Source: Lophium mytilinum
Taxonomy: Eukaryota
NCBI GenBank assembly: GCA_010093605.1
Contig: MU004197.1
Span: 124,001 to 188,000 of the forward strand
Direction: 5' to 3'
Length of the DNA stretch: 64,000 bases
The notes beneath the pieces were generated by a model. It was given only the letters and a program-made list of their open reading frames with translations, did not search any database and was not told where the DNA came from. Below are positions 4,275 to 48,212 of this stretch, one piece after another. A program made the translations under genes and the position numbers. Numbering within the stretch: position 1 is the stretch's first letter; every line of letters starts with the position of its first letter.

Positions 4275-4426
4275 GGCCCGGCACGCAACCCCCGTCTATT
4301 AGGACGGAGGTCTGCCAGCCCTCGCCCCAAACACCTGTATAGTGCGTTGTCTTAACGCGCAGCTGTCAGGCTGCGCATAGTGACTAACACTATACAGGGT
4401 TGAGACGAAGGCTGGTGTGCTTGACC
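4275..4426 (-). promoter_or_regulatory. Class A structured 3'-UTR RNA element of G2
   Basis: mRNA sense: closing stem GGUC-GCAC/GUGC-GGCC, long hairpin CCAGCCUUCGUCUC/GGGGCGAGGGCUGG with inner stem CUGUAUAGUG/CACUAUACAG and loop CUGACA, second hairpin GACCUCCGUC-CUAAUA-GACGGGGGUU. Homologous to 34381-34522 and 48059-48212. Confidence 0.75.
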
Positions 4427-4503
4427 ATGTATGAAAAGAAAAGAAAAGAAAGAAAAAGAAAAGAAAAAGAAACCACTTGCAGAACCTCATTTTCACCCGC
4501 TCA

Positions 4504-7500
4504 TCAGCCGCCCGCCGCCTCGGACCAGTCGCTCACATCGCTCGCCGCGTCGCTCAGCTCGCTCGAATCGCTATCGCTGTCCTCCTCACGAGCCATGAGA
4601 TGGGACTCGTCGCGCTCCTCGACCTCTCGCTGCTCCTCCCTCAGAGCCCTCATCTGAGCATCCCGCTCGCGACGTCGGTCGTGCACAGTCTCAGTCTGAG
4701 AAGAGCTGGCGTCAGGACTTGCTAGGTCCAAGCTGGTAGACGTCTCCGTATCGTTCTCGACGTTCGCAAGGAACGCGCGAGCTGCATTCGCCGCAGCGTC
4801 AGCCGCTTCCTCGGCGTTGTACAGCATACGTATCGCAGAGGGGGTCTTTAGATCTTTCACCGCTTCGTCGAAGACGGTTGGCCATATCTCCTGGGCGTCG
4901 GCCGACAGCTGCTCGTGGGACTCGTTCATCTTCCGCTCCAGCTCAGCCAGCTCCCGCGCCTGTATCTGCTCGGCAAGCTGTTGATCCGCCTGCTCTTGCG
5001 CTGCTTTCTGAGACGCTTCGTTCGCTGCGTGCTTTGTTTGATACGCTTCCTGGTTCTTCCTCGCCTCCTCGCGCTTCTTCAGCAGTATGGTCTTCCGCTT
5101 CTCCCACGGGTGGTTGAGCTCCTTGGCGAGGGGCTGTTGGTACGTGTCCTCCGTCCGCGACTCAACCGGTTGCTTCAGCCAGTGCTTGAAGACAACCCCT
5201 TCTCTCAGAACGCTGAACCTGATCAGCTCATCATGGGTGAACGTCTGGCCATCTCGTCGATTATGCCGCTCAAGCACCCCATAGATCTGCTTCAGCGCGT
5301 CCTCCCGCATCTGCTCCGCGTCGCACGCGAGGTCCTCGTAGTCCCCATCGTCTAGCACCAATCCGGGGATGCAGTTGTAGGCCGTGGCACTCAGGCCACG
5401 CTCTTTCAGAAAGTCCCCCACGGCATCGCGCCACAGGACCTCGTTGCCGCAATCCGTGAAAATTACGCGCTCGATGGTGTGGAGGTAGTCGCCACTGTCT
5501 GCGGAGCGAGAGTAGAACGTCTGCTCCCTCACCGTCGTGAGATCGATGAGGGTGGAGTCGGAGAGGAGGGGGAGTCCGTCTTGGGTGATGTTCTGGTTGT
5601 CGCGGTCGTAGTGGACGATCAGACGGTAGAGGACGTTCTGGCGCTCGAAGATCTGGCCGAGATCGTCCCCATCCCGCATATCCGGTGGAGGTGGCGGGCG
5701 GGTTGGCTGGTTGGCGGGGTCGGTGAAGACCCTAGGGATGAGGCGGGGGTGTAGGACTAGGTAGGTGGATCGGGGTCCCGATATAGACGGCGGAGACGGC
5801 GACGTGTGGGGAGCCTGGATATTGGCAGTTGGCGCCACTCCAACAGTCGCAGCTGGTTGGAAAACAGGCGGGGATTGTGCTGCCATCTGAGGAGCATCGA
5901 CCTGCTCACCCTCATCTGAAGCCTCGGTGACCTCTTCAGCTTCGCCCATAGGCGAATCAGCCCGAGGAACGATAGGCTCTGGAGCAGGGGTAGCAGCCAC
6001 TGGCGTCAATCCGGCAACGCCAACGCGCGGGAAAAGGGCCTCCAGACTCGGGTCAATAGCCGAATTATCGACCGTTCCCTGGTCTCTATCGGGCGTAGGT
6101 GGCTCCCTGCCTTCAGCCATGTTCGAATCTGCGCTGAAGTCAAAGCTATACAGAGGGGCTCTCAATGCCTCTTGAGGTGCGACAAATGGTTGCAACGCAG
6201 GATCAGATCTAGAAGCCTGTGCCGTATCCACCGGATCAGGGCCCCGAGGAGCATCTGCAGCTTCGCCCATCTCGATATTGGCTCCGTAAATGCCGTCTGG
6301 GCGCGCGTTCCACGGATCAATCCGGTCCCCCCTGGGCTCGCTATCCTGCTGGAAAGCGGGAGCAGACGGAGGTGCCATATGAAAGCCGAAATTGGCAGTG
6401 GGAGGATTGAACCCGAAAATTGGGCTGGGTTGCTGTACCGGTTGCTGAGGCACAAAAGGCACTGGAGCTTGCCTAGCCACTACAGGAGAGGGGGATGGAA
6501 CCGTGAAGCTAAAGCTGTCCGCGTTGAACATGTTTGGCTGAAAGCCATTGGAATGGAAAGCATTCGGCGACACCTGTGGATGGAAGGAGGAGAACACAGA
6601 AGCTGGAGTGGTGGACCCGGGCGGTGGGAGTTGCATAGACGGAGAGAAGACCTGCGAGAAGCTCAGGGCGCTGGGGGGACTCGCCGCATGCTGCAGGGGC
6701 GCAAAATTGGCGGGAGCCTGGCTGCGATCTGGAAGCTGAGGCTGGTTGAACACAGGGGGCTGGAAGCTATTCAAGGTATCGGCAGCTGCGCCTAGATCAG
6801 AGCTTGGAAATGGTGCTGCAGTAGCGGGCAGGAGAGTAGGCGCAGGGCCTCCAGACGGCGGTAGGACAACACCAGTAGTGTCAGAGACCAAGGCAGATTC
6901 CGCATGTTCCTGACCAGCGTGATCGATAGCTTCTTCAAATCCAGCGCCTACCAACAGCAGCGTGGCTGAGGGTCCGTCAGCCGAGGGGGGTCCTCCTGAC
7001 GGTGCGATGGTACCGGCAGCGGAGCTAGGCACGAAAGCCAGATCTGGAAGCTCCTGGGCAACAGCCTTGACACCATCGCTTGTATCAGGAGTTGCGGGGA
7101 GTGAAGTGGACGGCGCTGCGTTAGTAGATGGAGGACTTCCTGACGGCGCGATGACCTTGGCAAGAAAGCCAAACACAGAGAACTGATCTGACTGCTCCTG
7201 AACAGCCTGAGAGATAGGCTCGCTTGAATCACCATCTGGTGATGGAGTGGCGGCGGAGGTTGGGATGGAAAATGGAGGTCCTTCAGAAGGTGCAATGACA
7301 GCGTCAGCAGAGTCTGACACGATGGTGAGATCTGAATCCTCTAGGCTATTGACTTTGGCGGCATCGCCAGAATCAGACTCCGGGGACTGAGATTGAGTAG
7401 AGTCCAAAAGAGGAGAGTGAAGGCCGTCGGACGGTGCGATCATAGTGGCAGCGGAACCCGACGCAATGGTGCGATCTGTCTGCTCTTGGCTTCTGGTCTC

Positions 7501-9259
7501 AACTGCACCATTTGAATCAGACTCCGCCGACTGAGATGTGACAGAGTTCGGAGGATGAAATCGAGGACCGTCAGACGGTGTCGTGACTACGATAACAGGC
7601 GCGGAAACCGACACGAGATTTGAACGGTCCTCCATAACCTCCTTGAAGACCGGCTTGGAAACACGACTACTGATTCGGAGCTTGCCGTTGAAGTCCTTCA
7701 CCAAAGCTTTAACGTCGAATCTCGCGCGGCCAGTCTGAAGCGCCATATCCGATGTAGCTTCTCGTAGCATAGACACCGGAGTGGAAGTAGCCACGACCTT
7801 TCCAGAGCGCTGTCCAGTGATGGCTGCTCCGGCACCGCTATCAGGTTCATCAGCCGAGTCATCCGATTCGTCTGAATCGTCGCTGTCAGAACCATTGAAC
7901 TTGAATTCCTTAGGATCGAAGTGGAATTGTGTGCGCTCTCCTTTGTCTGAGATGCGATCCTCTGATTGTGCATCTGAACCGATCCCTTCGTCATCTGTGT
8001 CCCGCCTGGAGCCACTATACCTCTTAAGGTCATTCACAGTGGTTTCCAGATCGAGAACCCGTTGGCTCAACTTTATGTCTTCCCTATTGCGGGCGTCTAG
8101 ATCGATACGCAACATCTTTACAGTACTCTTAGTACTGAACATCTTCTTGTTATCCTCATCCATATGTATTAGAACTGGATGCTTCAACGAGAAATCCATC
8201 TTCTTGAGATAGCCGCTCTTGACACCTTTTAGTTCTGCCAGGAGTTTGGCGTTTTCTTTCGTCAAGTTTTTGACTTCTCCCTCGAGCTCCGCTACGGCAT
8301 TTTCTGCGGCGCCTTGCTTGACACCTTGATCGAAGCTCCGCGTGGTCAAGTTCTTAATCTTCGCTTCCAGCGTTGCAACTTCCGCCTCATGCTGAAGATG
8401 AATAGGCTTGAAAAGTTCTTCGAAGATTTCTTTGATACGATCATCTGTCACGTGGTTTGTAGCTTGGTTGGTGTCTACTGAAGTATCCACCTCGAGCTTG
8501 ATGTAAGATGAAGAATTGGGACCGGTGCGAGCAGAATCATCTTGGAGAGAGTCCAGGGTTCGTACTGGTGGAAGAGGAGGGACAGATTGAGAAGGAGAGG
8601 CTAAGTGAAGGGGATAGACCAAGTGAGGCGAAGATGCCGGGTGAGGAGGATGGGCTAAGAGGTGAGGAGCTTGGACTACATTGGGATCTGCGAGGTGTGC
8701 ATCGCGGTGAAATCGTGCGCGCAAGCCTTTCCAAATGCGGTGCGCACTGAGAGCTAGCAAAACCCCGAGGATGAGGGTGAGAAAGAGCCATAGAAGCTGG
8801 TGAATTATCGAACGCTCTGCCGATGCAGGCGAGAATGTCCGATTTGAGCTCGATGTAAACGTAGAGTTGTCTTGCATAGGAGCTTAGAAAAGAGTGGGTC
8901 AGCGACGTCCTCATCTATACGAAAGTGAAAAGACTTACGCGTATCAGAAGCGGCCTTTACAGAATCCCACGCCTGTTGCTCTGAGATAGTGAGGTAAATC
9001 GGAGGCGGGTTGTACCGGATAGAAGCTTGGAAAAGAGAAGGTCAGCGACGTCCCCATCCATGCGAGAGTGAATAGACTTACGAGTATCAGGTGCAGACTT
9101 GACAGGGTCCGACACCTCGTGCTCCGAGATAGTGAGGTATATCGGGCGCGGATTGTACCAGATAGTAGCTTTACCAGCGTGAACGAGTATCCGCAGGAGG
9201 ACGTCGATGACATTGTAGCCTGTCTGGATGAGGGCATGGGCGGCCATGTTCGTGGCCAT
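4504..9259 (-). CDS. G2: array-family protein, ~1547 aa (N-terminal TM helix, coiled coil, IAPSxG repeats, FxF-rich region, two KIX-like repeats)
   Basis: 1457-aa ORF extended by exons 9259-9082 and 9025-8939 through 56-nt introns 9081-9026 and 8938-8883 (GTAAGT..GCTGAC..AAG), frame preserved. TM segment LLWLFLTLILGVLLALSA. Confidence 0.85.
8883..9165 (-). repeat. Tandem duplication of a 143-nt exon+intron unit in G2
   Basis: Exons encode YNPRPIYLTISEHEVSDPVKSAPDT and YNPPPIYLTISEQQAWDSVKAASDT, each followed by a closely similar 56-nt intron. Confidence 0.85.
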
Positions 9260-9569: not shown

Positions 9570-11136
9570 GTAACCTGGCCAAAAAGACATGTTGCGAGAT
9601 ACACGTCATCGGCCATACGGGAGACACGGAGTCACGTGTCAAGATGCTTATGCGGCAGTGAAAATGATACCGCTATATTTATCTGTCTTGTTAAGATCCC
9701 TCTAGAGCCACTGGTGTCGCTGCTTGTTGGGGTGCAAGATTTGGCTTTAGCTGGAGATACAGCAACAGCGGGAAGATGAGGAAGACGAAACAAGGCTGGG
9801 TAGGAAGATGGCAAGGGGCTGAGCGACGGCGACATGGTACATTAGTTATAGAGGAAATGGACCAAAGAATGCTAGCCCCTTCGTCAATGATGGTCGCTCC
9901 GGAGCCGCTATCTAGAATTCCATGATCGTCCTCATCGTCTTAGGCATCCTCGGTCCTCGTATAGTCCTCTTCAGGCTTGTCTTGCTTGCCTGCCTAGGCT
10001 CCTGGCCAGCTCCCTTACCTCACCCACAACTCTGTTGTTCTCTCTGATGTACCGGCGCTCTTGACTCTCCGGTTCTTCGTCGTAGCTACGAGACCGAAGC
10101 GCGTGGTTTTGCGCAAGCTCTTCCCTGTGACCAGTGAGATACTTGAAGATTCGCACTATTATCCCAGTGTAACACATTTGCTCCAACTTGATCTCCCCAT
10201 TGATCTCCCCGTTTGCTGCGCTTTGTTCGAAAAGATCCTTTCGAGGAACCATCCGTCAATGTCTTTGCGGGACTCATTTTTGAAATTTGCAAGCGTGCCA
10301 ATACAATATAGTTGGCGCTTGAGACGAGAAAAGGGAAGTTCTCCAGCCATGCCTCACACCCCCAGACATGAGTGAAATTCGGGCAAAGGCAAAGATAGGC
10401 AAGAGACACAAACGTAGGGATAGGGTGGTAGTAATGAGAGGCCTAACATAAATATCTATACCTTTCCTAGCATTGGATCAACTCTACATGTTGGTTTGTG
10501 TCCACCTTTATCGATAAGAACCAGCCAATAAGGTCTAGCCGCTTAATTTAACGATTGGCCAAGAATTGCTTACGTAACAACCCAACACACTAACGTGCGA
10601 AGGAATACGGCAGGACACTAGGATCTTTTACGAATGCACGTTTTTCTCCGACCATTATTCCATCCCTGCTAGGTGCTACATTTTCTGAACTCGAAGCAGT
10701 AGATATCTGGAACTGTTTTGCCTAACTAAGGGCGTGCTGGCTGTGGCACCCCTAACAGCGGTGTCAATTATGCAAGAGTAGAGCCCGGGCAGTGAGATGT
10801 CTGTGGGCCCCAATATAAGGTATAGTACTATACTGGATCCGCACCATTAGTGAAGGGTAATTACGCAGCAGCATCGATAGCAGTCGAACAGCGCTAGTCA
10901 AGTCACATACTCAGCATTGCACCGTGGTGTTTTTATTTGTTTTTGTATTTTCTCATCCTCTAGAATACTGGGGCCTCCCAGACACCGCTCAACCCCGTCC
11001 ATCAGGACAGACACCCCATGACCATATGCAGTATGCCCATCGCAAAACACCAATATCTGCTTGCAAATTCAAACGCACCCAACTCGCACTCCAAATCGCA
11101 CCTGAGACTCAGCCACCGAAACCCAAAACTATAAGA

Positions 11137-11395
11137 CAAACCCGAACACCGGCTAGCCAGAGCACCGGGGAATACAAGAAATCTTCTTCTGCAAGAGGTG
11201 TCCGCAGTACTGCGTTCAAAACCTCTCATAGTATCGGAACTCCAAGTTTCCCCATTTTTGATTTTGTGGTGTAGTGTCCGGAATGCCACAACCCCTTCCT
11301 CTCCGAGTGATGTCCGCAACATTGCGTTCAAAATCGCTTGAAGAGTCAGGAGTCTGCCGGACGGTTGGCATATGTTGGGTGTAGGTGTTGGGGAT
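11137..11395 (-). promoter_or_regulatory. Class B structured 3'-UTR RNA element of G3
   Basis: Closing CCCCAACACC/GGUGUUCGGG, stem GUCCGG/CCGGAC, and two UUUUGAACGCA-N3/4-UGCGGAC hairpins. Preceded in mRNA sense by an A-rich tract (11413-11510). Confidence 0.7.
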
Positions 11396-11587: not shown

Positions 11588-14500
11588 CTACTGAAGCTCC
11601 TGGAGCATTGCTTGCTCAGCTCCGTCTTCCCCTCCCCAGCCATCGTCGTCATCATCATCGTCTGGAACCGCGAAGGTGCTGTTGTCAGGCGCTGTGTCGT
11701 TCTCTGGCGCTGCGGCGAGGGCGGGCGGCTCTAGAGGAACATCCCTTTCCTCTGGTTCTTGTGGCCGCCCCTGCCTGGCGTTCGCCGCCTGACGATCACG
11801 TTCCGCAACGCGTTGAGCCAGAGTCTCGTGGTCAGAGGGCTCGGTGTCGCCCATAAGCTCAGCCTGCCTAGTCGCCTCTTCCTCCTTCTCCGACGCAACC
11901 AATTCAGCTTGCCACTTCTGAAACTGCCGCCCCGCTTCGTCTGCCGCATCCTGCGCGTCTTTGGCCTTCATTAAAGCCGTCGTACGGGCAGCACTGTTCC
12001 TAGCGTCACGAATCGCCTGCTCCGCGACCTTCTTGAGCTCGATTTGGCGCCGCTGCTCCTCCTCCGCTTCTTGCGCCATCTTTGCACGGTACGCTTTATC
12101 TGCGGCGAGGTCGCGTGCGAACTCCGGCTCTTTGAGCTTGTACTTGGCCTGGAACGCTGCGTTCCTAGCGCGCATCTCGGCCTCGGATCGTCGGGCTTCT
12201 TCCTCCATTGCGGCTTCATCTGCTTTCTGTTGGTCCGCGATATCCTTCTTGGCCTTGCGCATCTGCGCCGCGCCGATCGCTATCCGCCCCTCATCGCCCT
12301 CCTGTTGGATCTTCTCACCGTACCGCTGGTCGTTCCGTCGGTCCTCGTAATGGCCAGCTGCCCAGAAGCGAATCGCGCGCTCCTCAGCGTCGACGGCTAG
12401 ATATACCATATCTTCGTCGGTGAACAGCGGCGCGTCTTTGAATAAGCGCGCGCGGTTCTGGCGTTGGAAGACGTGTTCGTATAGAAAGTATAGCCCTTTC
12501 AGGCGGACGTCGTTTAGCCAGTGGGAATACCGTTCCTCCTTCCAGTCTTCAGGGTGATACCGCTCTCGCTGGAGGAACACTGGCTGAAGGCGGTCCAACG
12601 CAGAGCGCGTGCTGAATGGCAACGGTAATGGAGCAATCTGCGTCTCGCGATGCGGTGCCTCTACATTGCTTGACCGTGGCGTCTGCGTGGAAGCTTGTGG
12701 CATAACACTAGGTGGAGGGAACGTGGAGGCTACAACCGTTAGTATTTTACGTTTTCCATCTGTGTTGTTTGAACGTGACATACCATTAGAAGCTTCTGGA
12801 CGAGCATCAGGCGTGGGGGGCGCCTGTGCAAACTGCTGACGTCCGGGTTGGTTTTCCATAGCCTGGGACGTGCTATGAGGGGAAGATGGACTCTGGAGAG
12901 TAGGTTCCATGTTTACTTCCATATTAATGGGCAGAGGCGCAAATCCTGGAAGATCCTTCACAGAGAGTCTCCAATCCGCAAGACACCTAAGCCAGAGTGC
13001 CGAGTTACCAACCTTGACGCTACCCATTCGACGAGACAGCTTCTCGACCTCCTCATGGTATTTATCATAGCTTCCAGCTCCCCGTGCGTTCGCAATCTTG
13101 AACTCCATTGCGCGTGCAAGGGTTACCCGCTCTTCGTATGAAAAGTTGCCGTTGTTGGCAACACCAGCCTCAGATAATGTCTGGAAGATGTGGCCCAAGA
13201 CGCCTTGACGTATATCCAGATATTTACGGAGGGTCGGGTCTGCAGGGAACAGCTCCATAACCGAGTAATTCTGCGAGGAAAGTTGAGGCGCTTGAGGTGG
13301 CGTTGCGTCAGGAACGCTACCTCCGGATGCGTTGTCATCGACGCCCATCTGCTCATCGCCATCATTATCTTGAGTTTCCTCCTTCATTTTGACGTTGCCA
13401 GTTTCGAGGTCATCCCGGGACTGCGGATTTGGCTTGACAACACCTGCGCCTTGGAAATGGTCCTGAACCGTTAGGGCGCCCCCGGAGTGAGCGACCCCGT
13501 TGACTTCAACTTCCTTAGACTCGTGTCCCATTCCGTCCTTCATTTTGACGTTGCCAGTTTCGAGGTCGTCCTTGAACTGCGGGTTTGGCTTCACAGCAGC
13601 TGCGACTTGGAAGTGGACCTGACCCGTTGCGGCGCCCCCGGAGTGTGAGATCCCGTTCTCTTCAACATCCTTGGACACGTCGCCCATATCATGATCGAAC
13701 TTGTCTGTTGTGTTCTCGCCGTTTGCGGTCGCCGGGCCTGCTTGAGGTTGTGTACCCTGATTTGCGTTTACCTGCAGAGCACTAGACACAAACGGCCCTT
13801 GTTGGTTTACGAAAGGTGTAGCTCCTGAGTTGGATGGAGCTTGGTTTGCTGGGACTTGAGTTGCTGGGGCTTGCGCAGCTTGAAAGTCCATAGCATGCTG
13901 GGTGATGATGGGTTTGAAGCTAGGGTCAAAGGTAGAGCGAGGAACAGCAAGTCCGAAAGAACTCGGCGGAGCCGCTGGCCCACCCACTGGAGTCGTTGGG
14001 GCAGCCTTGGCCAAAGTAGACTTCGTAGCGTGCTGGGCGATGTTGGGGTTGAAGCTCGGGATGAAGCTCGGGGTGTAGCTCAATCGAGGGCGCGCAAGTT
14101 TATATTCGTTCACCGGAGTCGCCAACACACTCGCTGGAGTCGCCGAAGTAGTCTTGGGTGTTGTAGGCTCAAAGACCATGGCTTCTTGATTGATAGATGG
14201 GTCGCGAGGAAGTTTGAATTCAAAGCGCGCAGGACGGAGAACTATGTCGCAAGACCGAGTCGCCTGCCCACCGACGGGAGTTGTTGGCGCAGCCTTGGCC
14301 AATGTAGGCCGAGGTTTCAGTGCTTGCTTAGAAAGGGTTGATTTGACTCTAGCCATGTTCACCGAAAGCGGACGAGCAGAAACCGAGCCCCTCGAGCGAG
14401 TCGCTAGCTCGCTCACTGGAGTGATTCGAGCGTCCTTGGGCAATGTAGGCTGAGAGTCGATAGCTTGCCCAATGGTGTTTGATTCGGAACTAGTACGGAA

Positions 14501-17500
14501 TACGAAGCGAGGAGGATCAAGAACGAACTTGCTCGACGAAGTGGTTGGGGTAAAGTCCAGAGACTGCATGGGTACCGGACGGGTGCTGCTCTGCTCTCCA
14601 GCGATGTGAGGAGGGGTTGACGACGTGGAATCGGTGCCAGGAGTCCCAGATGGAAGCGAGCGATCTGAAGCCTCTGTATTTGAGCTCGGTCCCGTGGTCT
14701 CATTCGAAGTGCCCCATTTTGAGGGCTCTGTAGATCGTGCAGTATTGTCCCCGCCTTTGTCGTTGCCGTGAGAGCTTCCAGACGCCTCAGCACCCCCTTG
14801 ACCACCGTCAGCAGGGTCATCGTCATCCGCATCATCGCCATCTTTCTTATGGATACTTAGATCCTTGTCGTCAGCTAGTTCATTCCGCTTTTTGGCAGCC
14901 TGCTCATCCTTCTTTCGCTCATCAGGATCCCTGAAATCGTCATCGTCGATACCGCTAACAAAATCCTTCTTTTTAAGCGTGAAGAGTGTCCCTTCACAAA
15001 CAGGGAGAGGAATTTCGCTAGCGATAGCAATCCACTTTTCATCGGCCTCAGTAGTAAACACGAACTCAGGCGAGAGCTCTTGAAGGATAGCGAGTGACTG
15101 GCGCATGAAGTTTCCCTCATTACTCCAAAAAAGAGTCACCTTTGGCCCGAGAGCAAGCATAAGCAAGTCCTCAGCACTCGTAGGCTTCGCTAAGTGATAG
15201 CGTGTTCGGAGCAAATCTTCCGTTTGCCTCATATTAATAGCTCTCCGCCTAACCTTTTTAATCTTACGGGGCGGAGTATTGGATCCGGCAGTGGACTGAA
15301 GCTCATTCACGGTGTTCTCGCCTTCGGGTTCCTTGTTGTCATCTTTGTTGGGATTGAGCTGGCGAGCGGTGTCGTTGGACACGGTAGTTTGAAACCCAGA
15401 AGAGTTGGTAGCAGACTCCGAAGATGGTCCAGCCAGACCGGTCGATCTCGAGTGATCAGCGTGCTGAGCCGGTAGAGAAGTATCGACACCTGCACCAGTA
15501 GTAATGGCGCTGGGGGATGTCGCATTTAGAACGTTGTTCGTGTCCTCCTCAGTGGTATTCGTGAGGGTCTCTTGTCCTTTCGATGGTGCGCCCGCTCCAT
15601 CTGAACCGTGCGTCTTGACCTCAACCTGTGTGGAGATCTCATTCTTTGTCGAGACCCCATCTTGTGTCGAGATCTCACCCTGTGTCAGAACCTCACCGCT
15701 TGTCAAGACCTCACTGTGTGTTGAGACCTCACCGTTCAATATAGAGCTAGACGGTGATTTCGCTGGTGACTCTGACGACAACGTATCGGTGGCTAGGCTG
15801 TTCGGGTCATGGCTGATAGTGAGGCTGCTGGGAGGAAGCTCCCCATGTTTATCCTCGCCCTTAACACGTTCCACTATATCGGTGACATTGGTGTTGAGCG
15901 CAGATGCTAGGTTGTTTGCGGAGTTTGGTGAGCCATGGGTGAGAAGAGAGCTCATAACAGAGCTTGGCGAACCTGACTCTTCCGAGTTTCCAGTCTGGCG
16001 CACAGGAGAGCTGGGAGTGTTATCCACGGGATTCTGCGCAACAGCCTGGTTTGATTTAATGGCTATCGCACTACCTTTTCCGGGATTGCTTGGATCGTCA
16101 TCGCCATCTGAGTCGTCCTCTTGACCATCACTTTGATCCTCGGAGTCTTTCTTCCTTTCATCCTGGTCTGCACCTGCACCATGGCGGTTGGGAGAGTCAT
16201 CACCCTGACCTGCACCTGCACCATGGCCCTCGTCCTCGGGGGTACCATCATCATCACCCTGGCCTGCACCTGCGCCTTGGTCGTCGTCCTCAGGAGTGTC
16301 GTCATCCTTATCTTTGCGCGTGTCCGAGTCGGGTTCCTGAGTCTCATTCTTTTCTTCGAACGGGGAATAGACGTTAGTCAGTTGCTTCTTGATGTCTTGC
16401 ACATCTTCGCTCAGCGCGAGAACAAGTCCCTTCTCAGCCTTGGAGTCGACGTCGCCACGCATGATCTGGAGATCGTTGCTGAGCGCCGTGACAGCATCCT
16501 TCCCAGCTTTCGAATAAAGGATTTCGCTCATCCCCTCTACTAAAGTGATAACTTTATCGGTATCGGTCTTTGAAGCGAAGTGGCCATCAAAATTCTTGAC
16601 CTCTTGTTCCAGGATAGTGAAATCTTGCTTTTCAGCCTTGTCGTCGACGGCCTTAGCAAGGGCTTGGCTATCCTCCCGGAGAGTGGTGAGGTCTTGCGCA
16701 TGAGCCTTCTGTGAAACATCCGCAGTGAGAGTCTGAACAGTCTGTTCCAAGGCAGTCAAGCGTTTCTTGATGGCCTTCTTTGCAACATCAGCCTGCAAGG
16801 TCTGAACTGAGTTTTGCAGTCCAGTAACGTCATCAGCATCCGACTTCGTGAGAAGTTGAGCATTCGTATTCTGGACCTCTTGTTGCAGATCCGTGACGTC
16901 CTGCTTTTCAGCTTTCCGGGCAAGTTCCTTTGTGACCTTGCGACGAAGAACACCAACACGCCTAATGCTCTTGTCATCTTGCTCCTTCGTCATCATCCGC
17001 AGTGCTTGCTGGGTGTTCTTTGTCGCTCGGACAGCTTCCCTGCGAGAGCGCCTAGTCTGCTTTTGGTGCAAACGTAAAGCAAACCGTTGTTGACGAAAAG
17101 CATGATTCCGCTTCTCCACGGCGACTTTGGAGTCTTCGAGAAGAGTGATTTTGGCTTCAAGCGCAGCGACTACATTCTTGTCTGCCTTCGTTGCGATAGA
17201 AGCGTGCATCTTAGTGTCTTTGTCCTCGGACTCTTTCATAGACGCAAGTGTGGCTCGCAGCATATCCTGGCAGTCCGGATCGGCGAGGCACTCTTTGAAC
17301 AGGCTCTGACGCTCTGAGGTGGTGATCGAAGATTCGGCGTCGGTATGAATTCCCTTGGATAGTTTTTCATCGACGGACTTTTTGTATGCTTCGAAGTCAT
17401 TGTTCAAAGTAGTCAGGAGTGCAGATAGGCCTTCGACTGCTGTGCGCAATTGAGAGAAGTGCGCATGGTCCGACAGCTTTTCGGTCTCGAGGAACTTTGC

Positions 17501-34522: not shown

Positions 34523-34659
34523 GCATCCTACGGGTATCTATTCCAACGCCGTATGAACCACCCATGTAACAAGAAGGAAAGACAAAGGAAATCCCACTTG
34601 CAAAACCCCATTTTGACTCAGCCACTCGCTGCCGTCCCGTTCATCCCCCGCATCGCACG

Positions 34660-37600: not shown

Positions 37601-40600
37601 GTCAACGGCCCAGCTGCATCATCTTCCGCAGTCGTGAGAATAGCTGGGGTCGGTCTTGCAACACCAGCTCCAGGTTGACTAATGAACCTAGACAGATCGA
37701 TATGACCTCTGTCGTCGTTGGAAGTAGTGACAGACACGGATTGTAGTCGAGACAACACCGAATCAACAGTCTCATCAGATTCCGAACTAACGACCCCCGC
37801 GCCGCCTTGACCAGCCTCATCTTCGTCGTCGTCCTCGCTGTCTGATTCTGACTCGTCTTCCTCACGACTGGATTCTCGCCATTGATTGTCGCCAGAAGTC
37901 GATCTAGGCGGCTTGAAGTCTTGATTTGCGGCGGTCCCGTTGTCAGTTTGAGGGCGATCATGACCTGCTGAGGTCCTACTGTCAGCGTTATCGTCTGACG
38001 CCTGTTGATCATCGTCAACAGCGGTATCAGATGCGCGATCTTGAACAGTGTCTTGGGTGGCAGAATCTGGTCTATTCGGCGAAGATCCTGGAAGCGCAGA
38101 GGTATCCAGCGTCGCTCCTGTAGCATGAGGCGGAGAACCAGATGAGATAGGTGTGACTGTCTCCAAAGGCACTACCACAGTTTCAGAAGCGATACATTCC
38201 TCACGCTTATTAGCACGAGCGTTTTCCTCCATAGCTTGATGCACCTCCTCGCACTCATAGCAGACCGGCTGGCCGTCGAAAATCTTGGTGGATTGCGTAG
38301 CCTTAAACCTCCCGCCATGAAGGAAACAGGTGACTACCCGACCGTTTAGCCATGAGGATGAGGGACTCCCAGTTTTAGTGAGGGTATATATGGTTGGACG
38401 GTATACTGGTGGAGATGGAGGTGGAGGTGGAGGGGGTGTGCGAGGACGAGGACCCTCCTGCTCAAGGACCAGTTCCTCGGACGCCCTGCCCTTCCCCTTC
38501 CCCTTGTATCTTGGCCTAGAGTCATAATCTGGTTCATCTGTAACCCCTTCCGAACTATCTTTCTCATTGTCCTGAGTGTCCCGGGACTCAGAAGGAGCGT
38601 AGTTTGCAGCATCTGCTTCAGCTGCAAATGTATCAGTTTGAACAGTTTGATCTTGTGCATATGAGGTATTCTGGTCTTGATCAGGGAGATTATCAGGACT
38701 AGAGGGAGGCGCGCATTCCTTATCCTGAGGTGGAAGCTTGTATGAACCAGGAGGTGGCGTACAATCCCGATCCATCTTTGGCGGAGTCGATGTGGAGGGG
38801 GGCAAAACTGAACTAGGCGATGAAGAAGAAGTAGTAGGAGTAGTCGGCACCGCTTGGGCAACGTTGAACCTAGCCAACGCTTGAGCGATCTGTTTTTTGA
38901 TATCTTTTTCCATAGCTTCTTGCAAAGCCGCAAAGCGCTCTTCAATTTCCCGGTCTTTCTGAGCCTGTTCGGTCCTAAGTCTTGCCAGTTCTTCAGCATG
39001 GTCTTTTACTTGCTGGTCACGGTCCGCCTCGAGCGCAGCGACTATTTTCGTCAACGCCATGATCCGACGTGCTTGGGCCTTTATATTGCCATCTAAGCCA
39101 AGGGCAGTCGACAGTGATGAAGCTCGATCTTGTGCAGCTTGCTTCTTGTGCGCTTCGTAGTTTTCCTCGAGGAGACTGAGGGACTTATCGAGGGAGTCGA
39201 CCTCGGTTTTGCTAGCCCTCTTGTTGAGTGCGACCTGCACTCTGTCGCGCAGCTTGTTCAGTTGTGCTTTCCAATCGTCCACACTTGCTGACGATACATC
39301 CCGTGATGTCGAAGGCCCAGCTTCGGCGGATTGATGACTAGTCTTCCGCATCGTCTCGAACTCTTGCTGTAGTGTGGCTATCGCGGCTTCCAGATCGTGA
39401 AGTTTCCGGGAGTACTCTTCTGGTGAGGCGGAGCGGGAGTGAACCTTCAAGAAGCGCGCTTTCGATCGATCTGACACACTGACTGATCTCCGGCCTCCGA
39501 ACGTAGTGCGCGCGAATCTGTTCTGTCGCGTTGTTTCTTCATCCAGGCCAGCCGTGTCGAAGTCGTGCTGTGTCGCACGTCTCGCGGGACGCTGCGCAAC
39601 AAAGCTGTCAATGAGGTCCCAGAGACGCTCTTGGTATTGCTGACTGTCGAGCAACATGGCAAGAAGCGCGAAAATAATCCTCAATGGGTCAGGCGTTGGC
39701 TTGGTGGGGCGCCAAAGGACGACTGCGTTATGAATGGAGGGGGTGGCCACGGGTGTATGCGCTGGGGGAGCAGGCGAGCCAGGAGGGCCTGGTGGACCTG
39801 GAGGACCTCGCGGGCCGGGGGGTCCTTGTGGGCCAGGAGGTGACGGTGGCGCTGGAGGTGGAGGAGGTAGCCCAGGTGGCCCTGGTGGGCTAGGTGGAGG
39901 AGGTGGAGGAGGCGGAGGAGGCGGAGGAGGCGGATGACCACCATTGTTGTTGTTTGGAGGGGGTGCTAGGGCATTCGGTGGAAGAGCTTGCCTACGGCGC
40001 ACGAGTAACCAGCGGATGAGATTGCGACAGAATTTCAAGATCAAGTATAAGCCATAGAAGGCCAAGGACCAGACAACCACGCTGAACAGTAGTTGTAGTG
40101 GTGTGAGGTTGTATTCCACATCTGGCATGAAGCGGCGAGCGGTATAGCGAGGTTTCGTCGCATTGATGCGTAAGGTGGCTAGAAGGAGTCGTATTAGCAG
40201 GAGAATACCTTGAACAAGTTATAGAACTTACGGATATCGAAGAACTTTGAATTTTCGAAACCGCCAACCAAATGTTCACCAGTGGAGACAGGGACGTCTT
40301 CAAACTCGAAGGGATTGGCTTCCACTGTCGCTGTCTCTATGATCTTCGTGGTGACGCTTGTCAAGGGAGGAGGAGTTGCAGTTGAGATGAAGGCTCGCTT
40401 TGTCGTGATCGGGAACGCCCTAACGCATGTCGTGTCGCCCTTTGAGCAGGGAAGATTGACCGTAGGTTTATATTTGCGGGTCTCCCAAGGACGGCCGGTG
40501 TTGATCCAGAGACGCAGAGCCTTCTCTACAGTCATGTATACATATACCGTTGCTCTGACCTCCTTGTCCCAAATGATGTACATGGCGCGATCAAACGCCA

Positions 40601-40640
40601 TGAGCCAGCTCAGGGGGGTATACGCTCCGAGAGCAGACAT
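34660..40640 (-). CDS. G7: array-family protein, ~1975 aa (TM, poly-Pro/GPP tract, RATQ motif, coiled coil, CxxH..CxxC, Nup50-like motif, one KIX-like repeat)
   Basis: CCACCATG at 40640. Exon to 40232 and intron 40231-40179 (GTAAGT..GCTAAT..TAG) join in frame (DI|PTLR) to the 1822-aa ORF. Confidence 0.85.
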
Positions 40641-41379
40641 GGTGGAGACTTGAACGAACAGGCTCGTCGTCGGGATTGTGTACAGAATGCGCGGACCAGG
40701 CGCAGAGAGAGGTCTCCAATAGATACCAAGAATGTGCACATAGGCCGCAGTGGAATTTGCGGTGTGGTGTGGTGGGGATTGTAGGGTGGTATCGAAGGAG
40801 GTGGGTGGTGGAGAAAGTAAGTCTGGGAAGTGCGAGGGCCTTGTTATGGATTAGCAGCCGGGCACAGGCACATCGAAACGACGCTAAGAGCTAAGCAGTG
40901 AATATAAACCTACTGCAGGGTCTCGAAAATGACGTCAAAGACGAAAGGGGCGTCATGTAAACAAAAGCACGGAAGCTCGGGGAGCGCGCTAAAGATCTAA
41001 TCAATTCACTGAGATGTTCAGGCACAATACTGAGCCATCAAATTAGGGCCCCGGATATACCACCGCTCCAAATACGATCTTGATCACTCGATACTACTGT
41101 GAGGAGGACCCTGTGTAGTCCGTTTGAGCTACGTCAAAAGGTAGGCTATTCAGCGCTCATGCACATACGAAGACTGGCCACATGCTCCCCCGCCCAATCT
41201 TGATAGTGGGTAGCTACAGCTGAGGTTTTCTCTCCGTGAATTGGTCCCTAAGACTAGACCTCTAGATAACCTTTTCAACGTCCTTAGACATTATACAACA
41301 CTATGATATATTTTGTCTACTTCCTACAGCCTCCTGAAGGACCTCCATAGACGCTGAAATTTTCGAATTACATATCAAA

Positions 41380-41960
41380 GCCAGCGCACTGTAAATTAGA
41401 GTACTATTTACTTGACTAAAAGTATGTTACTTGGGGTCCCCTGGACAGTGGTATGATGAGAGCAGAAGTGAAGTTAAAGCAATGGCATACCGGACCGTCT
41501 GAGCTTTTGACCTAGTACTGAGTGCTATGGGACATGTGTGGGCATTCCGCGCATACGCTTGGGGTATCTTGATAGGCTTTCGAAACTCTGAGTATGACAG
41601 CGATGCATCGTGAACATGGCTGCCGTTTGACTAACCAAAGACTTGCCGCTTGGGGTACTCCTTACATTGGCGTTAAGTGATCAATATTAATTTTAAAGTA
41701 GTGGAACATCAGTCTTCCTAATACTTCAACCTATTACCAGAGTATCTCTTGATATATTAAATCCCTTATACTGTATATATAAAATAGAGTAAAGTATTTC
41801 TAGACACCCCACGCATCTACTGGGGGTATCCCGATAGAGTTCTTGATCTCTATAAACGATGCATAGCTTGATGTACTGGATTTCTAGCTGCCATTTGACT
41901 AACTATAGACACGCTTACCGGGGTCCTCCTTACAGCGGCGCAACACGAGCACATAGTAGA
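41380..41960 (-). repeat. Degenerate copies of the ~163-bp repeat family
   Basis: GGGGTMCYCCT..ACAKTGG-type cores near 41433, 41652 and 41920. Further single copies near 10745, 33745, 47509 and 57755. Confidence 0.6.
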
Positions 41961-42184
41961 TTTTATGTCACCGATTTTGGTATCACTCCAATGGTCACAG
42001 ATGTCAAAGTACCATCAGTGTTTAGTTATTTTTATATTTTTTTGTAGTTTCAATCTTTTCTCCTGATGCGCATCACCCCAAGCACCCAATCCCCATATAA
42101 CAAAAGAAACAAGGCCGTAAAATCCACCACACACACAGAGAGAAACCTGCCCGCCGACGCCCCTACACAGGAAAACTGATAGAC

Positions 42185-42392
42185 AAACCCCAACACCATC
42201 TAGCCAGAGTGTCCAGACTACACGGTGCCTTCTTCTCCAGGGGGGATCGCAAGCCTGTGATCACACCTCCGTAAAGCGTCAGAGCACCAAGTTTCCTCCC
42301 CCTTGGACGGGTGAGGCAGATGCCTGTCAAACCGACCCAAGCAAGATTCTGCTGGACGAATGACGAGAACTGGCTAGACGTGCTGGGGTTTG
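42185..42392 (-). promoter_or_regulatory. Class B structured 3'-UTR RNA element of G8
   Basis: Closing stem AAACCCCAGCAC-GUCUAGCCAG / CUGGCUAGAU-GGUGUUGGGGUUU, stem GUCCAG/CUGGAC (covaries with GUCCGG/CCGGAC), two GC hairpin arms. A-rich linker at 42393-42455. Confidence 0.75.
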
Positions 42393-42507
42393 TTAGTTTT
42401 CTTTTTCTTCTTTTCTTTCTAATTTTCAGTTTTCTTCTTTTTTTTGGTTTGTTTGAAGGTTGCATCTTCGGGCTCCGCACTCCCCTATCCTCACTACCCT
42501 CGTCCCA

Positions 42508-45500
42508 TTACTCGCAGTTCTTAATGGTGTTTGCCCACTCTGTTTCATTGCCCGTCTCGATCCCAGTCACTTCCAGTTTCAATTGCCACTCATACGACTC
42601 TAGAGGAGTCGTGTTCCCCGTGGACGCCTCGTCGAGTGCTTCAATGGCCACGTCCTCCTCCCGAACCATAGCGAGCATCTGGAGCGCCCGCATGGTCTTG
42701 CGCGTGCGGTACCTCTTGTTCGTCTCCAGCAACACCTTCAAGATCTTCTTTAGACCATCGACGCGCAGTTGTTTATGGTTGCCGTAGAACTCGTCGGCGG
42801 AGCGGGGCACAAAGGGAACCTGTGGGCGGTCGTCGCGCTTGCGGAGCTTCGGGGCTCGTGTGGGACGTGTTGCTAACTGCTCTTGCGTCGCGGGGGTGGG
42901 GGTATTGTCCATAGAAGCAGACTGGCCAGGTGCTGGAATAGCTGAGGAAGAATCACCGACTGGAGACGATGTGATTTTTGGCACCGGTAGAATTGGTGTT
43001 AATGGCTCATATGTGCCCAACGAAGAGTCGGGGTCGAAGTGAGGAAGCGTATCCCACATATCGCTCTCTGGCACAGTCGTCGCATTGGATGCCGGATATG
43101 TAAGCTGAGGCGCTGCACTAGAGTCAGATGGCCAGGTGAAAGTGGACGAGAACGGTGTTGGATCCGCGCTGCCAGACCAGGAGCCTCCTCCATCAATTGG
43201 CGGTGGTGGCGCATAGAGGTCCCAGTTGTTGTCGCTAGGATTCACTGGATCGAACCCGGTTGGCTTGGAAGATTGATCAAGGGGCGTGTTCGGCACTGAC
43301 GCGTGGGAGTCAAAGTCGTTGGAACTGCCGGAACGATGGCTCTTATCAACCGCACCGTTGCCAAACGGGGACATGTAAGCAGACCAAACGCTTCTTGGAT
43401 TCGCGTTGCCCAACGCGGAACTTCCTCCTGCAAAGAGGCTCCGCTCCCACTCGTCGTCGTCGGGATCCACGGGATCGAACCCGGTTGGCTCGGAAGGTTG
43501 ATCAATGGGCGTGTTCGGCACTGACGCGTGGGAGTCAAAGTCGTTGGAACTGCCGGAAGAATTGCTCGTAGCAGGGGATCTGTTCATGTAGGGGCTGTTT
43601 TGCACCTCCTCTGCCGATAGAGGTTGCATAAGGCGCGCATCTAGCGCTGGTGGATCTGGCGCTGGCGGCCCTGACGCTGGCGGATGTGGCGCTGCTGGAC
43701 CTGACAACCCTTCCAATGGATTGGCGAAGGGTTTCTCCACATCAACCATTTCGTCAGTGTCATCGTGGCTATTCGATGGTTCACTCATCCGAGGCTCTTG
43801 ACGCCATGGTTCCTGACGCCATGGTTGTGGTCCCAAAACCGGTGCCGAACCCACCTGACCGGGAGGTTGGGTATAGCCATTGTCTGGCGCCTGCGTGTGG
43901 ATAATATCTTCATGGAGATTGACGAAGGGCACGCTCACGTCAACCATCTCATCGTACAGCTCGAATGCTAGTGCCTGTTCTTCTCGATGGACGAGGACGC
44001 GGAGACGAGAGGTCCATGCCGAGCGGATATCTTGACCGTTGACATATAGAAACAAGATGTTGGCGTTAAACTCCTTACTCTTTCGGACCCTGAAGCCATA
44101 AAGATCTGGGCCTAGCACCCTCAGAGGCCTCTTCCGATCGCGACCCCGTTGGAGCCAATGTAGGGTACCAGAAGTAGTAGAAGGATCAACTAGTTCTCCT
44201 GCTCCGGGTATGAAAGTTGGCACAGATGCGAAGATGGGCGTGGGTGCGCTGAAGATTGGACCGATCGGCTGAAGCTGCTGACGACCTGCTGGGTTTACTG
44301 GGGCTTCCTCGGGGACCGCAGAACGCTTTTCAGCGGGGAATGAAATGGTGAACAGATTCCAGCCTGGAGGACGATTCTGCTCGAGAGAGGTTGATTTCGC
44401 AGGGTCAGGGACGAGGCTCGGCAAAGAAGGCTCTAGATCACACGACACATGCTCGGTCTTTGGAGACGGCGTAGCACCGTGAGAGGGACTGTGAGGGGCC
44501 TCCGGCGCATCATCTGGTGGGTCTTGACCATCCACCAGATTCAGCTCGTCTGGAATAGACGTGGTACCCGTAGAATCAATGTTGGTCGGAGGGGGCGACA
44601 GAGGAGCCACAGGAGTGGAAAACGTCTGGGTTGGAAGCACGACATCTGAAGCTACTTCCGATACATGTGATTCGACACCCTGATTCTCGGCCTGAAGCTC
44701 ATGCTCTTGCTTAGCATGATAGTGGTCCGGGACCTCTCCGCTGGAAGTATCAGGACGGAAAGCTGCAGCGATTTGTGATGCGATTTCGGACTCCGGCGCG
44801 CTGTCATCGTCGCTATAAGGTGTGGACGCGCTATCTTCCTGCTGGACGGTCTGATCCTGCTCCTCGGCGTCGCTAGTTTGCTGAGCTTCGTCATGCGCTG
44901 AGGAGGATGTCTGGTCGTCACGGTTGGGCGGCAAAGCTGTACCAAGCTCTGTCTGATTCTCAGGCTCACGGCGGTCTTGTTCGCCGCTTGCTTCGATAAC
45001 GACGTCACCCTGCTGGAGAGTTTGATCCTGCTCGTCTTCCTCGCTATCATGCTGGATCTGTGCACCGTCCGAGGGCGTTTGGGCTTGGTGATCGAGCGCC
45101 AAGGCCGTGTCAAGATCCGTCCGATTCTCAGGCTCACCACTGTTCTGTTCCCTGCTTGCTGCGATATCGACGCGGATTGTAAACTGGGTAACGCTTTCAC
45201 TTGGACATTTTACCACAGCCTGCCAAGCTTTGCGCCTATCCTCCTCCGTCCAACGCGAGCTCAAATCGGAGATAGGCCCATCGTCTTGTTCATCTTCCGA
45301 CGAAGGCTCCCATCTCGGTAAGTTTGATGGAGCTTTGGCCTTCAGGAGACCCGACTTGGGCGGACCTTCCATTCTCGGAACGTACATGCTTACAGATGCA
45401 CGCTCTTCATCGGAGAAGCGCGGTAAAGGTCCGGGAGAACTTGGACGGCGGATCAAGGTCCTTGGTACCTTGACTACTTTGCCGTGATCCATTTGAGGGA

Positions 45501-46863
45501 AGGAAGCATGATAGTCATACCACTTTTTATACGCCTTGAAGGATGGGGTTTGAAATACTGAGTCCGAAGTGATACGGGTGACAATGCCGTCGAATTTGTG
45601 CGTCTCGTTCCAGCATACATCGCTTGCTCCACCATCTTCTTCCTTTGCTTGCTTGTCGTCAGTGAGGTTTCGAACCTCATCTTGCGTGGCTCGACGCAAT
45701 GCGGACTTGTCGAAACTCAGGACTTCAAGCGCATGTATCATACGTGAACGCCAAGCGGATTCGTCGGCATCGAGATTCTGAAGATAGTGCTGTGTGCCTG
45801 GTCGCGATATCGGGGGATCTGGTATGGGAAGAGACACAGCAACCGGAGGGAGATAGACACCCGTGGGGAGATGGAGAGTAGAGCTACTGGCATAGGGAAC
45901 AGGAACCACCTGGCCACCAATTGACGTGAAAGCAAAGAGAGGGCCAGAAACCGGAGGGAGTTTCAAGCCGGTGAGCGCTGGAACTATAGTCTGAACAGGC
46001 AGCGTGTCGATCATGGGTCGGCGGAGATGGCGCAGCAAGGGCGCGATCCGGTTGTTCCAGAGAGCGCAGAGACGGCGCAGCGAGGATGCTATGATGGACT
46101 TGTACATCGCGCCGAGACGGCGCATCAAGGGCGCGATGATGTTCCTGTATAGCGCGCGGAGACCGTAGAGTACACCGAGGAGAAGGGGGATGTTGAAAAC
46201 ATATGGCGCCCACCGGTGGAATGCAATATTGTCTAGAACATTTCCAGGACCGGAATCATCGTCTCCATCGGTTGGGCCAGATGGATCATCGTCTTCCTCG
46301 GTTGGGCCAAGTGGGTCATCGGAGGTCAGAAACGTGACTAGTGGACTTGGTATTAGCAGCGATACACCACGGGAAGAGTAGCATGCATTCTTACAGTTGC
46401 TGAAAGTGGAACCATCCGCAATACCAGATTCATTTTTTGTCTCGGGCTTCGTGTAGTGAATATAGACCACTCGTTTGGGGACGTAATCAGAAAGCGCGCT
46501 GCTGCCAGACCAGTAATCTGCGCTAGAATCTCTGGAGTCGAAGTCTGGAAGGGTCAGGCGGAAGTCTGTGAGAGTGAGGCGGAAGTCTGTGTGGGTGAGG
46601 CGGAAGTCTGTGAGGGTCAGGCGGGTCGGGGCCGGATTGTAGTGCCAGACTGCCTTTCCGGTATTAACAGCTATCTGGAGGCCTGTGTCGAATGTACTGC
46701 GAACCACCTGCGAGAGCAGGAGGATGAACATATCGAACATTCCGACACCAGTAGTGAAATGCCTATAGTTTGATTAGCTTGTCTTTCCAGGTATTCAGTT
46801 GTGAGGAAGGGGGATATAGGGCGCTGAAACAATTCAATGACAGTGACGGGTTTCAACTTACAT
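42508..46863 (-). CDS. G8: array-family protein, ~1400-1418 aa (TM, RATQ motif, disordered region, one KIX-like repeat)
   Basis: 1410-aa ORF. Upstream intron 46861-46763 appears to split the start codon (AT|G). Possible stop-free 57-nt intron at 46394-46338. N-terminus NTGKAVWHYNPAP resembles G2 HAGKATIWYNPRP. Confidence 0.8.
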
Positions 46864-48058
46864 TGTGAGCGGATGTGTTCGAGCAGATTGCTGGCAAGCA
46901 GCGAAAGCAGTGTGCCTGGACCAGAGGCAGCGCGCGAAGTCCAACGACAGTGAAGGAGCCGCAAAAGTGAGGTTGTGGAACACCAAGGCAGGGCGTGGTG
47001 TGGGGTATGAGGTGGTGTGTGGAGTGTCGATGGGAGGTGGTGAGGAGGAAGGTCCGTCAAGAGCGAGGGCAACGGATTGAAATCAGCAGCGTAGGCGCTA
47101 GGCGGCGCTAAGAGCTAGAGGGCACTTTCACTAGTGAAGTGAAATGACGTAATTGTGCGAATTTGATGCGACGGGGTTTGTGTGTCAACATCGGGTATTC
47201 ACTAGTTGTGGGCCTCGCTTTGTACCGGGTCCGGGCAAATTGGTGTTGCAGAGGGAGATTTGGCGAAGAAGGGAGAAGATGCTCAAGGTCTAGCTATATA
47301 TGCATGTAGTGTCGCAGGGGTTGAAAATTAGCTATATTCATAGACTTAGAAGTCATTCAGTCCTCTTTCTACAGTACTGAGTTATATGGTTGGACAGTCC
47401 TTGCAAGTCCTAGGGTGCTCCAAAAAGCATGGAAACTTCGAAATGCCATGTGACGGCCATCCTAGTGGGAATTAGACCACCTTTTGACCAACGGAGGAAT
47501 TGCTCCTTGGGGCACACCTTACAGTAGTGTCGGGAGAGCAAGGGTGAAGCCAAAACCATGGCATATCCATGTTGCCCACATCCAAAGCTCAGTACTGTAT
47601 GCTTATCCAATGCCTTGTTTATAGATCTGGTTTAGCGCGTGTCGCTGTTGACATCTCAATACTCAGACCAAAATATATTCAGGGGGACTAGCAGGTGCTG
47701 TCGCGGCTCTCAAAAGGACTGTTTGATCAGTACGATCTATGCTTGGTTGAAATTAGTACCCATATATCACAATTCTATTCCACGTATCCAATATAGCGCA
47801 GGTAGAATGTAGCATCGCAGCCTTCAAAACACCATGGACGTAGGAGTCTTTCAAACACATATCACCAGTGTCAAATCGAAGAGTCAAAGTTTGTAAATAT
47901 GCTTCATCGGATTCCAAACAGCTATTAAACCATTCAACTGTGATTACCAACAAAAGCTCCCTACTCGCAATACACTCGCACCGTTGACTACAATAGAACA
48001 CACAAAGAAATGAAAAAGATCTAGCATTTACTCCCAACTAGACCGACCTATCTGAGCA

Positions 48059-48212
48059 GGTCTAGCACGCGACCCCGTCTATCAGGACAGAAGTCTCCCA
48101 GCCTCCGCCCCCGCCCCAAATACCTGTATAGTTCCTTTGTCGAGCACGCAGCTATTAGGCTAACGTGTGACTAGCACCATACAGGGTTGAGACGAGGGCT
48201 TGTGTGAACTGA
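48059..48212 (-). promoter_or_regulatory. Class A structured 3'-UTR RNA element of G9
   Basis: Stems GCCCUCGUCUC/GGGGCGGGGGC, CUGUAUGGU/ACUAUACAG, CACG/CGUG, AGC-CUAAUA-GCU and GUC-CUGAUA-GAC. Confidence 0.75.

Follow-up and report, generated by a model that had tools for sequence, protein, structure and literature searches.

A candidate structured element with twin CURAYA hexaloops behind three genes of an orphan cluster in the fungus Lophium mytilinum

Why should genes whose coding sequences cannot be aligned with one another carry a similar block of some 150 nucleotides (nt) behind their stop codons? The question is raised by a 64-kb stretch of DNA from the dothideomycete fungus Lophium mytilinum (contig MU004197.1, positions 124,001 to 188,000; hereafter the window), in which nearly all long uninterrupted open reading frames (ORFs)—1457, 2351, 418, 1487, 1822, 1410 and 1550 amino acids (aa), among others—lie on the minus strand, and in which an earlier sequence-only reading had noticed a repeated structured element, class A, behind three of them. 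Our analysis suggests, with about even confidence, that class A is a sense-strand structured module of the 3' untranslated region (3' UTR) through which an RNA-binding factor docks on members of a lineage-specific gene family, and that it may have been exapted from an old insertion.

A covariance model built from the three class A copies, with which the window was scanned with filters off, returned exactly three full matches, every one on the minus strand: copy 1 at 4272-4428 (cmsearch score 164.4 bits), copy 2 at 34377-34523 (140 bits) and copy 3 at 48056-48215 (154.9 bits). They follow minus-strand ORFs of 1457 aa (4504-8877), 1822 aa (34660-40128) and 1550 aa (48326-52978), respectively, at distances from the stop codon, measured from the element starts given in the sequence-only reading, of 77 nt (4426 vs. 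4504-4506), 137 nt (34522 vs. 34660-34662) and 113 nt (48212 vs. 48326-48328). This confirms the claim that three copies lie behind stop codons in a common orientation: all three window copies are in gene sense, 77-137 nt past the stop. In BLASTN comparisons among intergenic regions the copies are 76-78% identical over 140-166 nt (E 4e-18 to 2e-27); in comparisons of gene units (coding sequence plus 700 nt of 3' flank) the similarity between genes is confined to the 3' elements, with none in the coding sequences; and BLASTP among the three upstream ORFs finds nothing below E 1e-3. By segment, identity is 78-81% in the core, 59-69% in the next ~60 nt downstream and 37-57% in the upstream flank; the downstream extension lies at 4195-4271 (minus strand) in copy 1, with homologues at about 34300-34376 and 47985-48055, and was included in an extended alignment for RNAalifold. 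The sole other similarity among the three flanks is a post-stop stretch of copies 1 and 2 (BLASTN 78% over 50 nt, E 4e-4), whose 3' UTRs have in common the motif AAAATGRGGTTYTGCAAGTGG (4473-4493 and 34594-34614, minus strand). Class A is an island of conservation behind otherwise unalignable genes.

On the minus strand the fold of each copy comprises a long imperfect hairpin (about 93-99 nt), made up of lower, middle, GUC/GAC and apical stems, and a short hairpin directly behind it: 4316-4414 and 4285-4315 in copy 1; 34418-34510 and 34392-34416 in copy 2; and 48107-48199 in copy 3, whose short hairpin carries the loop at 48080-48085. The minus-strand folds of copies 1, 2 and 3 reach -88.2 kcal/mol (z-score -9.1), -71.4 kcal/mol (z -5.4) and -63.8 kcal/mol (z -3.9); those of the plus strand, at -73.0 kcal/mol (z -6.5), -61.2 kcal/mol (z -5.4) and -45.3 kcal/mol (z -1.8), are less stable by 10-18 kcal/mol. 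The advantage of the gene-sense strand stems from its non-Watson-Crick pairs, which are G-U there and turn into C-A mismatches on the plus strand; the sequence-only reading had pointed to this asymmetry, and the minus-strand folds of copies 1, 2 and 3 indeed contain 7, 8 and 9 G-U pairs vs. 0, 1 and 0 A-C 1x1 mismatches. In copy 3, a 6-nt duplication of GGGGCG in the 3' arm creates an alternative, better-paired register, by which pairing at the base of the long stem is restored.

So compact and strongly structured a segment might also be a small non-coding RNA gene in its own right or, at the level of DNA, a palindromic protein-binding or recombination site between genes, and a palindrome of this length could act as DNA. 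We consider either very improbable. The borders of the copies show no consistent T-run or promoter-like feature, and a scan for bacterial-type promoters and terminators found nothing, as expected in a fungus; the copies lie at a tight spacing from the stop codons and have flanking UTR motifs in common; and the G-U asymmetry favours RNA over DNA. Copy 2 faces a convergent plus-strand ORF (31523-32866) and is therefore not the promoter of a downstream gene. Nor does the element match an Rfam family, in line with the undescribed RNA that the sequence-only reading had inferred: Rfam 15 gave zero matches in the whole window at gathering thresholds, and in E-value mode the best matches of copies 1 and 3 were snoTBR2 at 16.8 bits (gathering threshold 62) and mir-150 at 15.6 bits (gathering threshold 55).

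All six hairpins end in a hexaloop of the pattern CURAYA closed by C-G, though the stems of the two hairpins are unrelated, and the loops were found exactly where the sequence-only reading had placed them: on the minus strand, CUGACA at 4364-4369 (long hairpin) and CUAAUA at 4297-4302 (short) in copy 1, CUAAUA at 34464-34469 (long) and CUGAUA at 34401-34406 (short) in copy 2, and CUAAUA at 48153-48158 (long) and CUGAUA at 48080-48085 (short) in copy 3. Transitions at loop positions 3 and 5 account for all the variation among the loops, positions 1, 2, 4 and 6 being constant; by our own arithmetic, a second hexaloop would match CURAYA by chance about once in 1000 cases. Other minus-strand CCTRAYAG sites (7838, 18941 and 22416) were considered and set aside, none of them lying within a hairpin loop.

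What could read such loops? The motifs of SF1/BBP and of the STAR proteins (QKI/GLD-1) are UACUAAC and ACUAAY, and YUNR, with which the class A loops start, is a U-turn motif known from antisense RNA loops. The proposed kinship of the loops with SF1/BBP and STAR sites survives in part: CURAY is contained in all six, but the base preceding it is C in six of six and A in none, for which reason the loops lack the fuller SF1 or STAR cores, and a single-stranded core of this kind is not present. The pentamer itself does correspond, as had been stated, to a fungal branch-point consensus, CTRAY being given as the branch-site consensus of filamentous ascomycetes, for Fusarium and Neurospora, in two papers (PMC5677156, PMC4408805).

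The long hairpin, with its imperfect stem of ~40 bp, invites a different explanation, namely that it is a substrate of an RNase III enzyme (Dicer or Rnt1-type), so that cleavage ends or destabilises the mRNA or yields small RNAs acting in trans on other family members whose arms are nearly identical. Stem length and imperfect pairing resemble those of small-RNA precursors, the arms are the best-conserved blocks between copies, and the element stands in gene sense directly behind the coding region; on the other hand, the mir-150 score, the sole miRNA-like match in Rfam, is noise (E 1.1), the window contains no arm-matching sites beyond the three copies, and the second hairpin and the shared hexaloop are left unexplained. 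We judge RNase III processing improbable.

Does the pattern of substitutions point to selection on the structure? In the model alignment of 46 pairs, 96.3% of 134 cells are standard pairs, compared with 31-44% when partners are slid. Variable columns are fewer among paired than among unpaired positions (17/78 vs. 19/41; Fisher p 0.007), some columns unpaired in the model being paired in individual folds, and random placement of equally many changes keeps pairs less often (six directed comparisons: P 0.007-0.17, with three values below 0.03). One-sided changes on the minus strand are wobble-compatible in 13 cases and of the A-C type in 2 (hand count; binomial p 0.007), and at CpG sites on this strand we find six C>T changes and zero G>A changes (CpG>CpA), a pattern that fits selection for G-U rather than symmetric CpG decay. 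Pairs changed on both sides number one in the count (A-U / G-U / G-C, alignment columns 38-88); the other compensatory pair, where copy 3 has A-U in place of G-C in its apical stem, shows up by hand only, once a bulge is considered. Both compensatory changes quoted by the sequence-only reading are thus real, and no others exist. Repeat-induced point mutation, which acts mainly at CpA, was examined as a source of the G-U excess and rejected: the base after the 16 C>T changes is T seven times, G six times, C twice and A once.

Several observations weigh against a selected, factor-docking RNA. Three sequences are too few to demonstrate covariation (the observed value is reached in 379 of 500 shuffles), and the pairing statistics are partly circular because the structure was derived from the same three sequences. 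On the minus strand as a whole, C>T changes outnumber G>A changes by 16 to 6, and part of the G-U excess could therefore stem from strand-biased mutation. Conservation is no higher in the loops than elsewhere in the element: they change at about its average rate, with 3 changes in the 12 loop positions when copy 1 is set against copies 2/3, so that the functional argument is the likeness of the two loops within a copy, not extra conservation. The three-way junction of the sequence-only reading holds for two copies at most: its closing helix, the 4-bp GCAC/GUGC, forms in the folds of copies 1 and 2 but is not conserved, the 5' strand being UCAC in copy 3; with more flank, the outer closure differs between copies, and a possible fourth hairpin in the downstream extension competes for the same 3' strand. 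In view of this uncertain closure, we describe the element as two adjacent hairpins with a less conserved downstream extension of ~60 nt. Finally, we looked for transcripts of class A and found none: among the runs on record as RNA, none contains the stretch, and a sequencing run presumed to be RNA, compared with 34001-54000, covers 48349-48568 and 52338-52591 at a depth of about 2-3, together with a few short pieces, and gives no cover on copies 2 and 3, the run being uninformative on 3' ends.

To the same side of the balance belong the direct repeats that bracket every copy. Around copy 1, a 13-nt repeat (4260-4272 and 4470-4482; 12/13 identical; 1 of 300 shuffles of the 120-nt flanks as high) encloses the copy together with a tract between it and the stop codon, (CTTTT)n at 4433-4472 on the minus strand according to Tandem Repeats Finder; read on the plus strand, the order is repeat, body, (GAAAA)n, repeat, and by this layout copy 1 looks like a short retroposon lying antisense to the gene. 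Copy 2 has the weakest repeat of the three, again 13 nt (34201-34213 and 34568-34580; 12/13; 14 of 300 shuffles of the 200-nt flanks as high) and situated in purine-rich tracts. Copy 3 is bracketed by a repeat of 53 nt (47967-48019 and 48241-48292; about 77% identical; 0 of 300 shuffles as high), which is unusually long for a target duplication. CT-rich tracts comparable to that of copy 1 precede copies 2 and 3, as read from the sequence, and both of these copies have purine-rich tracts on both element sides.

It is possible, if rather unlikely in our estimation, that these marks tell the whole story: class A could be the functionless relic of a retroposon resembling a short interspersed nuclear element (SINE), or of another repeat, that came to lie antisense in an ancestral 3' UTR and was carried along by tandem gene duplication, the hairpins being inherent to the insert and the apparent conservation reflecting a later origin or gene conversion rather than selection. 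Besides the repeats and the (GAAAA)n tail, such a history is favoured by the similarity stopping close to the element borders, by the presence of other repeat families in the same 3' flanks, and by at least one further copy outside the window: a 4008-nt contig of a sequencing run that may be the source of this DNA holds a copy at ≥80% likeness whose letters differ from those of copy 1, so that the genome has at least four copies. Close relatives are nevertheless few, that contig being the one other at ≥80% likeness, a threshold at which more diverged copies would escape, the window copies themselves being only 76-78% alike. Moreover, a source RNA is not recognisable (ARAGORN finds 0 genes in the window and hence no tRNA-like head, and neither 5S, 7SL nor any other Rfam family matches); the strand that bears the tail is opposite to the one that folds better; the substitutions favour pairing on the minus strand; and the placement is non-random, three of three copies sharing position and orientation relative to the stop codon.

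The sequence-only reading had named copies scattered in random position and orientation, as for a miniature inverted-repeat transposable element (MITE) or a SINE, as what would speak against a regulatory RNA. Direct repeats at every copy and the A/G-rich tail of copy 1 do recall such elements, whereas position and orientation are not random. A MITE in particular does not describe the copies, in which the long inverted repeat is internal, conserved sequence extends beyond both arms and the arms are not abutted by a short duplication. Judged by eye, the sequence beyond the repeats appears homologous between copies, the post-stop motif and the ~60 nt downstream included, BLASTN backing only the post-stop stretch of copies 1 and 2; this homology and the shared position and orientation argue for at most one insertion event rather than a scattering family. 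The simplest history suggested by these sequences would be that the module was inserted once, in an ancestral 3' UTR, and then multiplied with the duplicating genes, although copy 3 may stem from a separate insertion event nearby.

Searches beyond the window gave little more. A loop-free pattern from the 5' arm had 0 matches in JGI metagenome contigs. The short-hairpin pattern hit 7 loci there, which are high in GC, have no similarity beyond the pattern and were treated as chance. A 151-nt contig of a leaf-litter run matches 40 nt (with 4 differences) at 48167-48206, and another contig matches the flank at 34267-34354, which is too little to use; a further run with a small share yielded short matching pieces unrelated to the element. 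Within the window, a lone look-alike of the short hairpin (10992-11008, minus strand; 16/17 identical to copy 3; loop CUGAUG; model E 1.8) is found ~590 nt past the ORF 11588-18643, an ORF with a 3' flank of another class, and in its context the hairpin is not the minimum-energy fold. Judged by title and the opening of the abstract, the Lophium mytilinum papers listed deal with taxonomy or comparative genomics, and none of them mentions the element. Class A is a well-defined RNA-structure candidate, undescribed as far as Rfam and these papers go, and not yet a discovery.

The genes that bear the element are themselves without recognisable relatives. An orphan cluster on the minus strand of window positions 1-53000 comprises at least eight long ORFs, of 418-2351 aa, none with a Pfam domain. 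Among 11 window ORFs searched against Pfam, 10 had no family, the three upstream of class A included; the remaining one had a sub-threshold RhoGEF match (25.2 bits vs. the Pfam cut-off of 27.6) and is an ordinary-looking gene at 54941-56821 (minus strand) that borders the cluster. The ORF 4504-8877 is part of the NCBI hypothetical protein BU16DRAFT_543537, with which it is 100% identical, and 48326-52978 is part of BU16DRAFT_596099; the stop codons of both agree with the C-termini of the NCBI models. In a word-index search of 5.8 billion proteins these two ORFs matched only themselves, as did the 447-aa neighbour ORF 31523-32866 in a full HMMER scan of 1.84 billion representatives, and an ESM Atlas search for protein context gave no usable match. 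The cluster translations have N-terminal hydrophobic segments and low-complexity, coiled-coil-like bodies; acidic tails and internal tandem repeats (e.g. 13375-13686, 26269-26550 and 49850-50164) also occur in cluster ORFs. BLASTP of ORF against ORF within the cluster yields a handful of marginal local matches, with E about 1e-4 to 1e-5. On visual inspection, what immediately follows the stop codon of 48326-52978 (48290-48330) resembles the last codons of 4504-8877 (DV...GG, then stop), and the acidic tail DAEE of 48326-52978 recurs, in another reading frame, at the end of 34660-40128 (34600-34662); the C-terminal ends of these ORFs may be homologous, shifted by a premature stop or frameshift.

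Class A is one of two types of 3' module in the cluster, each long ORF having one or the other. Class B elements lie on the minus strand at 11125-11343, 20041-20256, 25845-26006 and 42172-42340, behind the ORFs ending at 11588, 20281, 26242 and 42508; they consist of blocks 70-90% identical, including repeated short hairpins CGCA-NNNN-UGCG and the block CCGGACACUCUGGCURGAUGGUGU, and in three of the four a CA-rich tract stands between the stop codon and the blocks. Further downstream, the 3' flanks of both classes contain a repeat family of ~162 nt, with 6 tandem units behind the ORF 4504-8877 and 1-2 elsewhere (3068-4046, tandem with period 163; 10691-10816; 25321-25596; 33692-33817; 41381-41725; 47457-47582). 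Its 11 units, aligned over ~125 nt, have no consensus structure; it is matched by other contigs of the presumed source run and by one contig of the run presumed to be RNA. On the minus strand, YCURAUA is present in units of the tandem array; CTRATA is found in the flanks 22 times on the minus and 6 times on the plus strand, with 9.6 expected, mostly within the array at 3068-4046.

Returning to the factor-docking module that we favour, the sequences establish the conserved island, its fold, the bias between strands and the identity of the loops; beyond this, we infer that class A is transcribed within the mRNA, bound by a protein and of regulatory consequence. The module, about 150-200 nt in length, would sit in the 3' UTRs of a subgroup of a tandemly arrayed gene family specific to the Lophium mytilinum lineage; its two hairpins would present the same C-G-closed CURAYA hexaloop as docking sites for one RNA-binding factor; and common docking could give the mRNAs a shared post-transcriptional fate in stability, localisation or translation. 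The direct repeats, together with an A/G-rich tail on the opposite strand, indicate that the module probably entered an ancestral 3' UTR by insertion; it would then have been passed on through gene duplications and retained. A bolder version, which we regard as a long shot, would make the exapted insertion a family-wide "address label": twin hexaloops mimicking the branch site would recruit a branch-point-binding or STAR-type KH protein to unspliced mRNAs of intronless genes in a hypervariable orphan family, class B would mark the rest, and expression of the two subfamilies would be sorted or timed by this pair of labels, amounting to a post-transcriptional code for a gene cluster that evolves rapidly.

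The evidence base is one species, with three aligned copies and at least one more. Should class A prove functional, it would be a rare instance, for a filamentous fungus, of a defined structured element in the 3' UTR common to paralogues whose coding sequences have diverged beyond recognition; it would offer a handle on the co-regulation of an orphan gene cluster; and it would be one more case of an inserted repeat giving rise to a regulatory RNA.

How does class A compare with systems already known? Fungal SINEs are short retroposons with an A-rich tail and target-site duplications, which class A resembles in size, in its flanking direct repeats and in the A/G-rich tail on the plus strand of copy 1; it departs from them in the lack of a tRNA-, 5S- or 7SL-like head, in the small number of close copies, in the fixed post-stop position and in the better fold of the opposite strand. 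Compared with SF1/BBP and STAR sites, class A holds CURAY in a closed hexaloop, not in a single strand, and no intron signals surround it. The E. coli thrS operator, in which two mimics of the anticodon arm are bound by the dimeric threonyl-tRNA synthetase, likewise unites two hairpins with look-alike loops in one RNA, and the class A loops can also be read as C-U-anticodon-A of Ile/Val tRNAs; however, that operator is bacterial, lies in a 5' leader and has seven-base loops, and nothing ties class A to a tRNA synthetase.

Two eukaryotic systems are nearer in arrangement behind the coding sequence. In the 3' UTR of transferrin-receptor mRNA, several hairpins with C-G-closed six-base loops, the iron-responsive elements, are bound by one protein that sets the stability of the mRNA. 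The class A loop is CURAYA and not CAGUGN, the C-bulge motif is lacking and the Rfam model of the iron-responsive element does not match; the likeness is one of hairpins with a fixed C-G-closed hexaloop behind a coding sequence. The mRNAs of trypanosome variant surface glycoproteins have a conserved 16-mer in their 3' UTRs. Class A differs from this 16-mer in being a structure of ~150 nt rather than a linear motif, and organism and gene family are unrelated; it resembles it as a near-constant non-coding element that stands behind a gene family with strongly diverged coding sequences.

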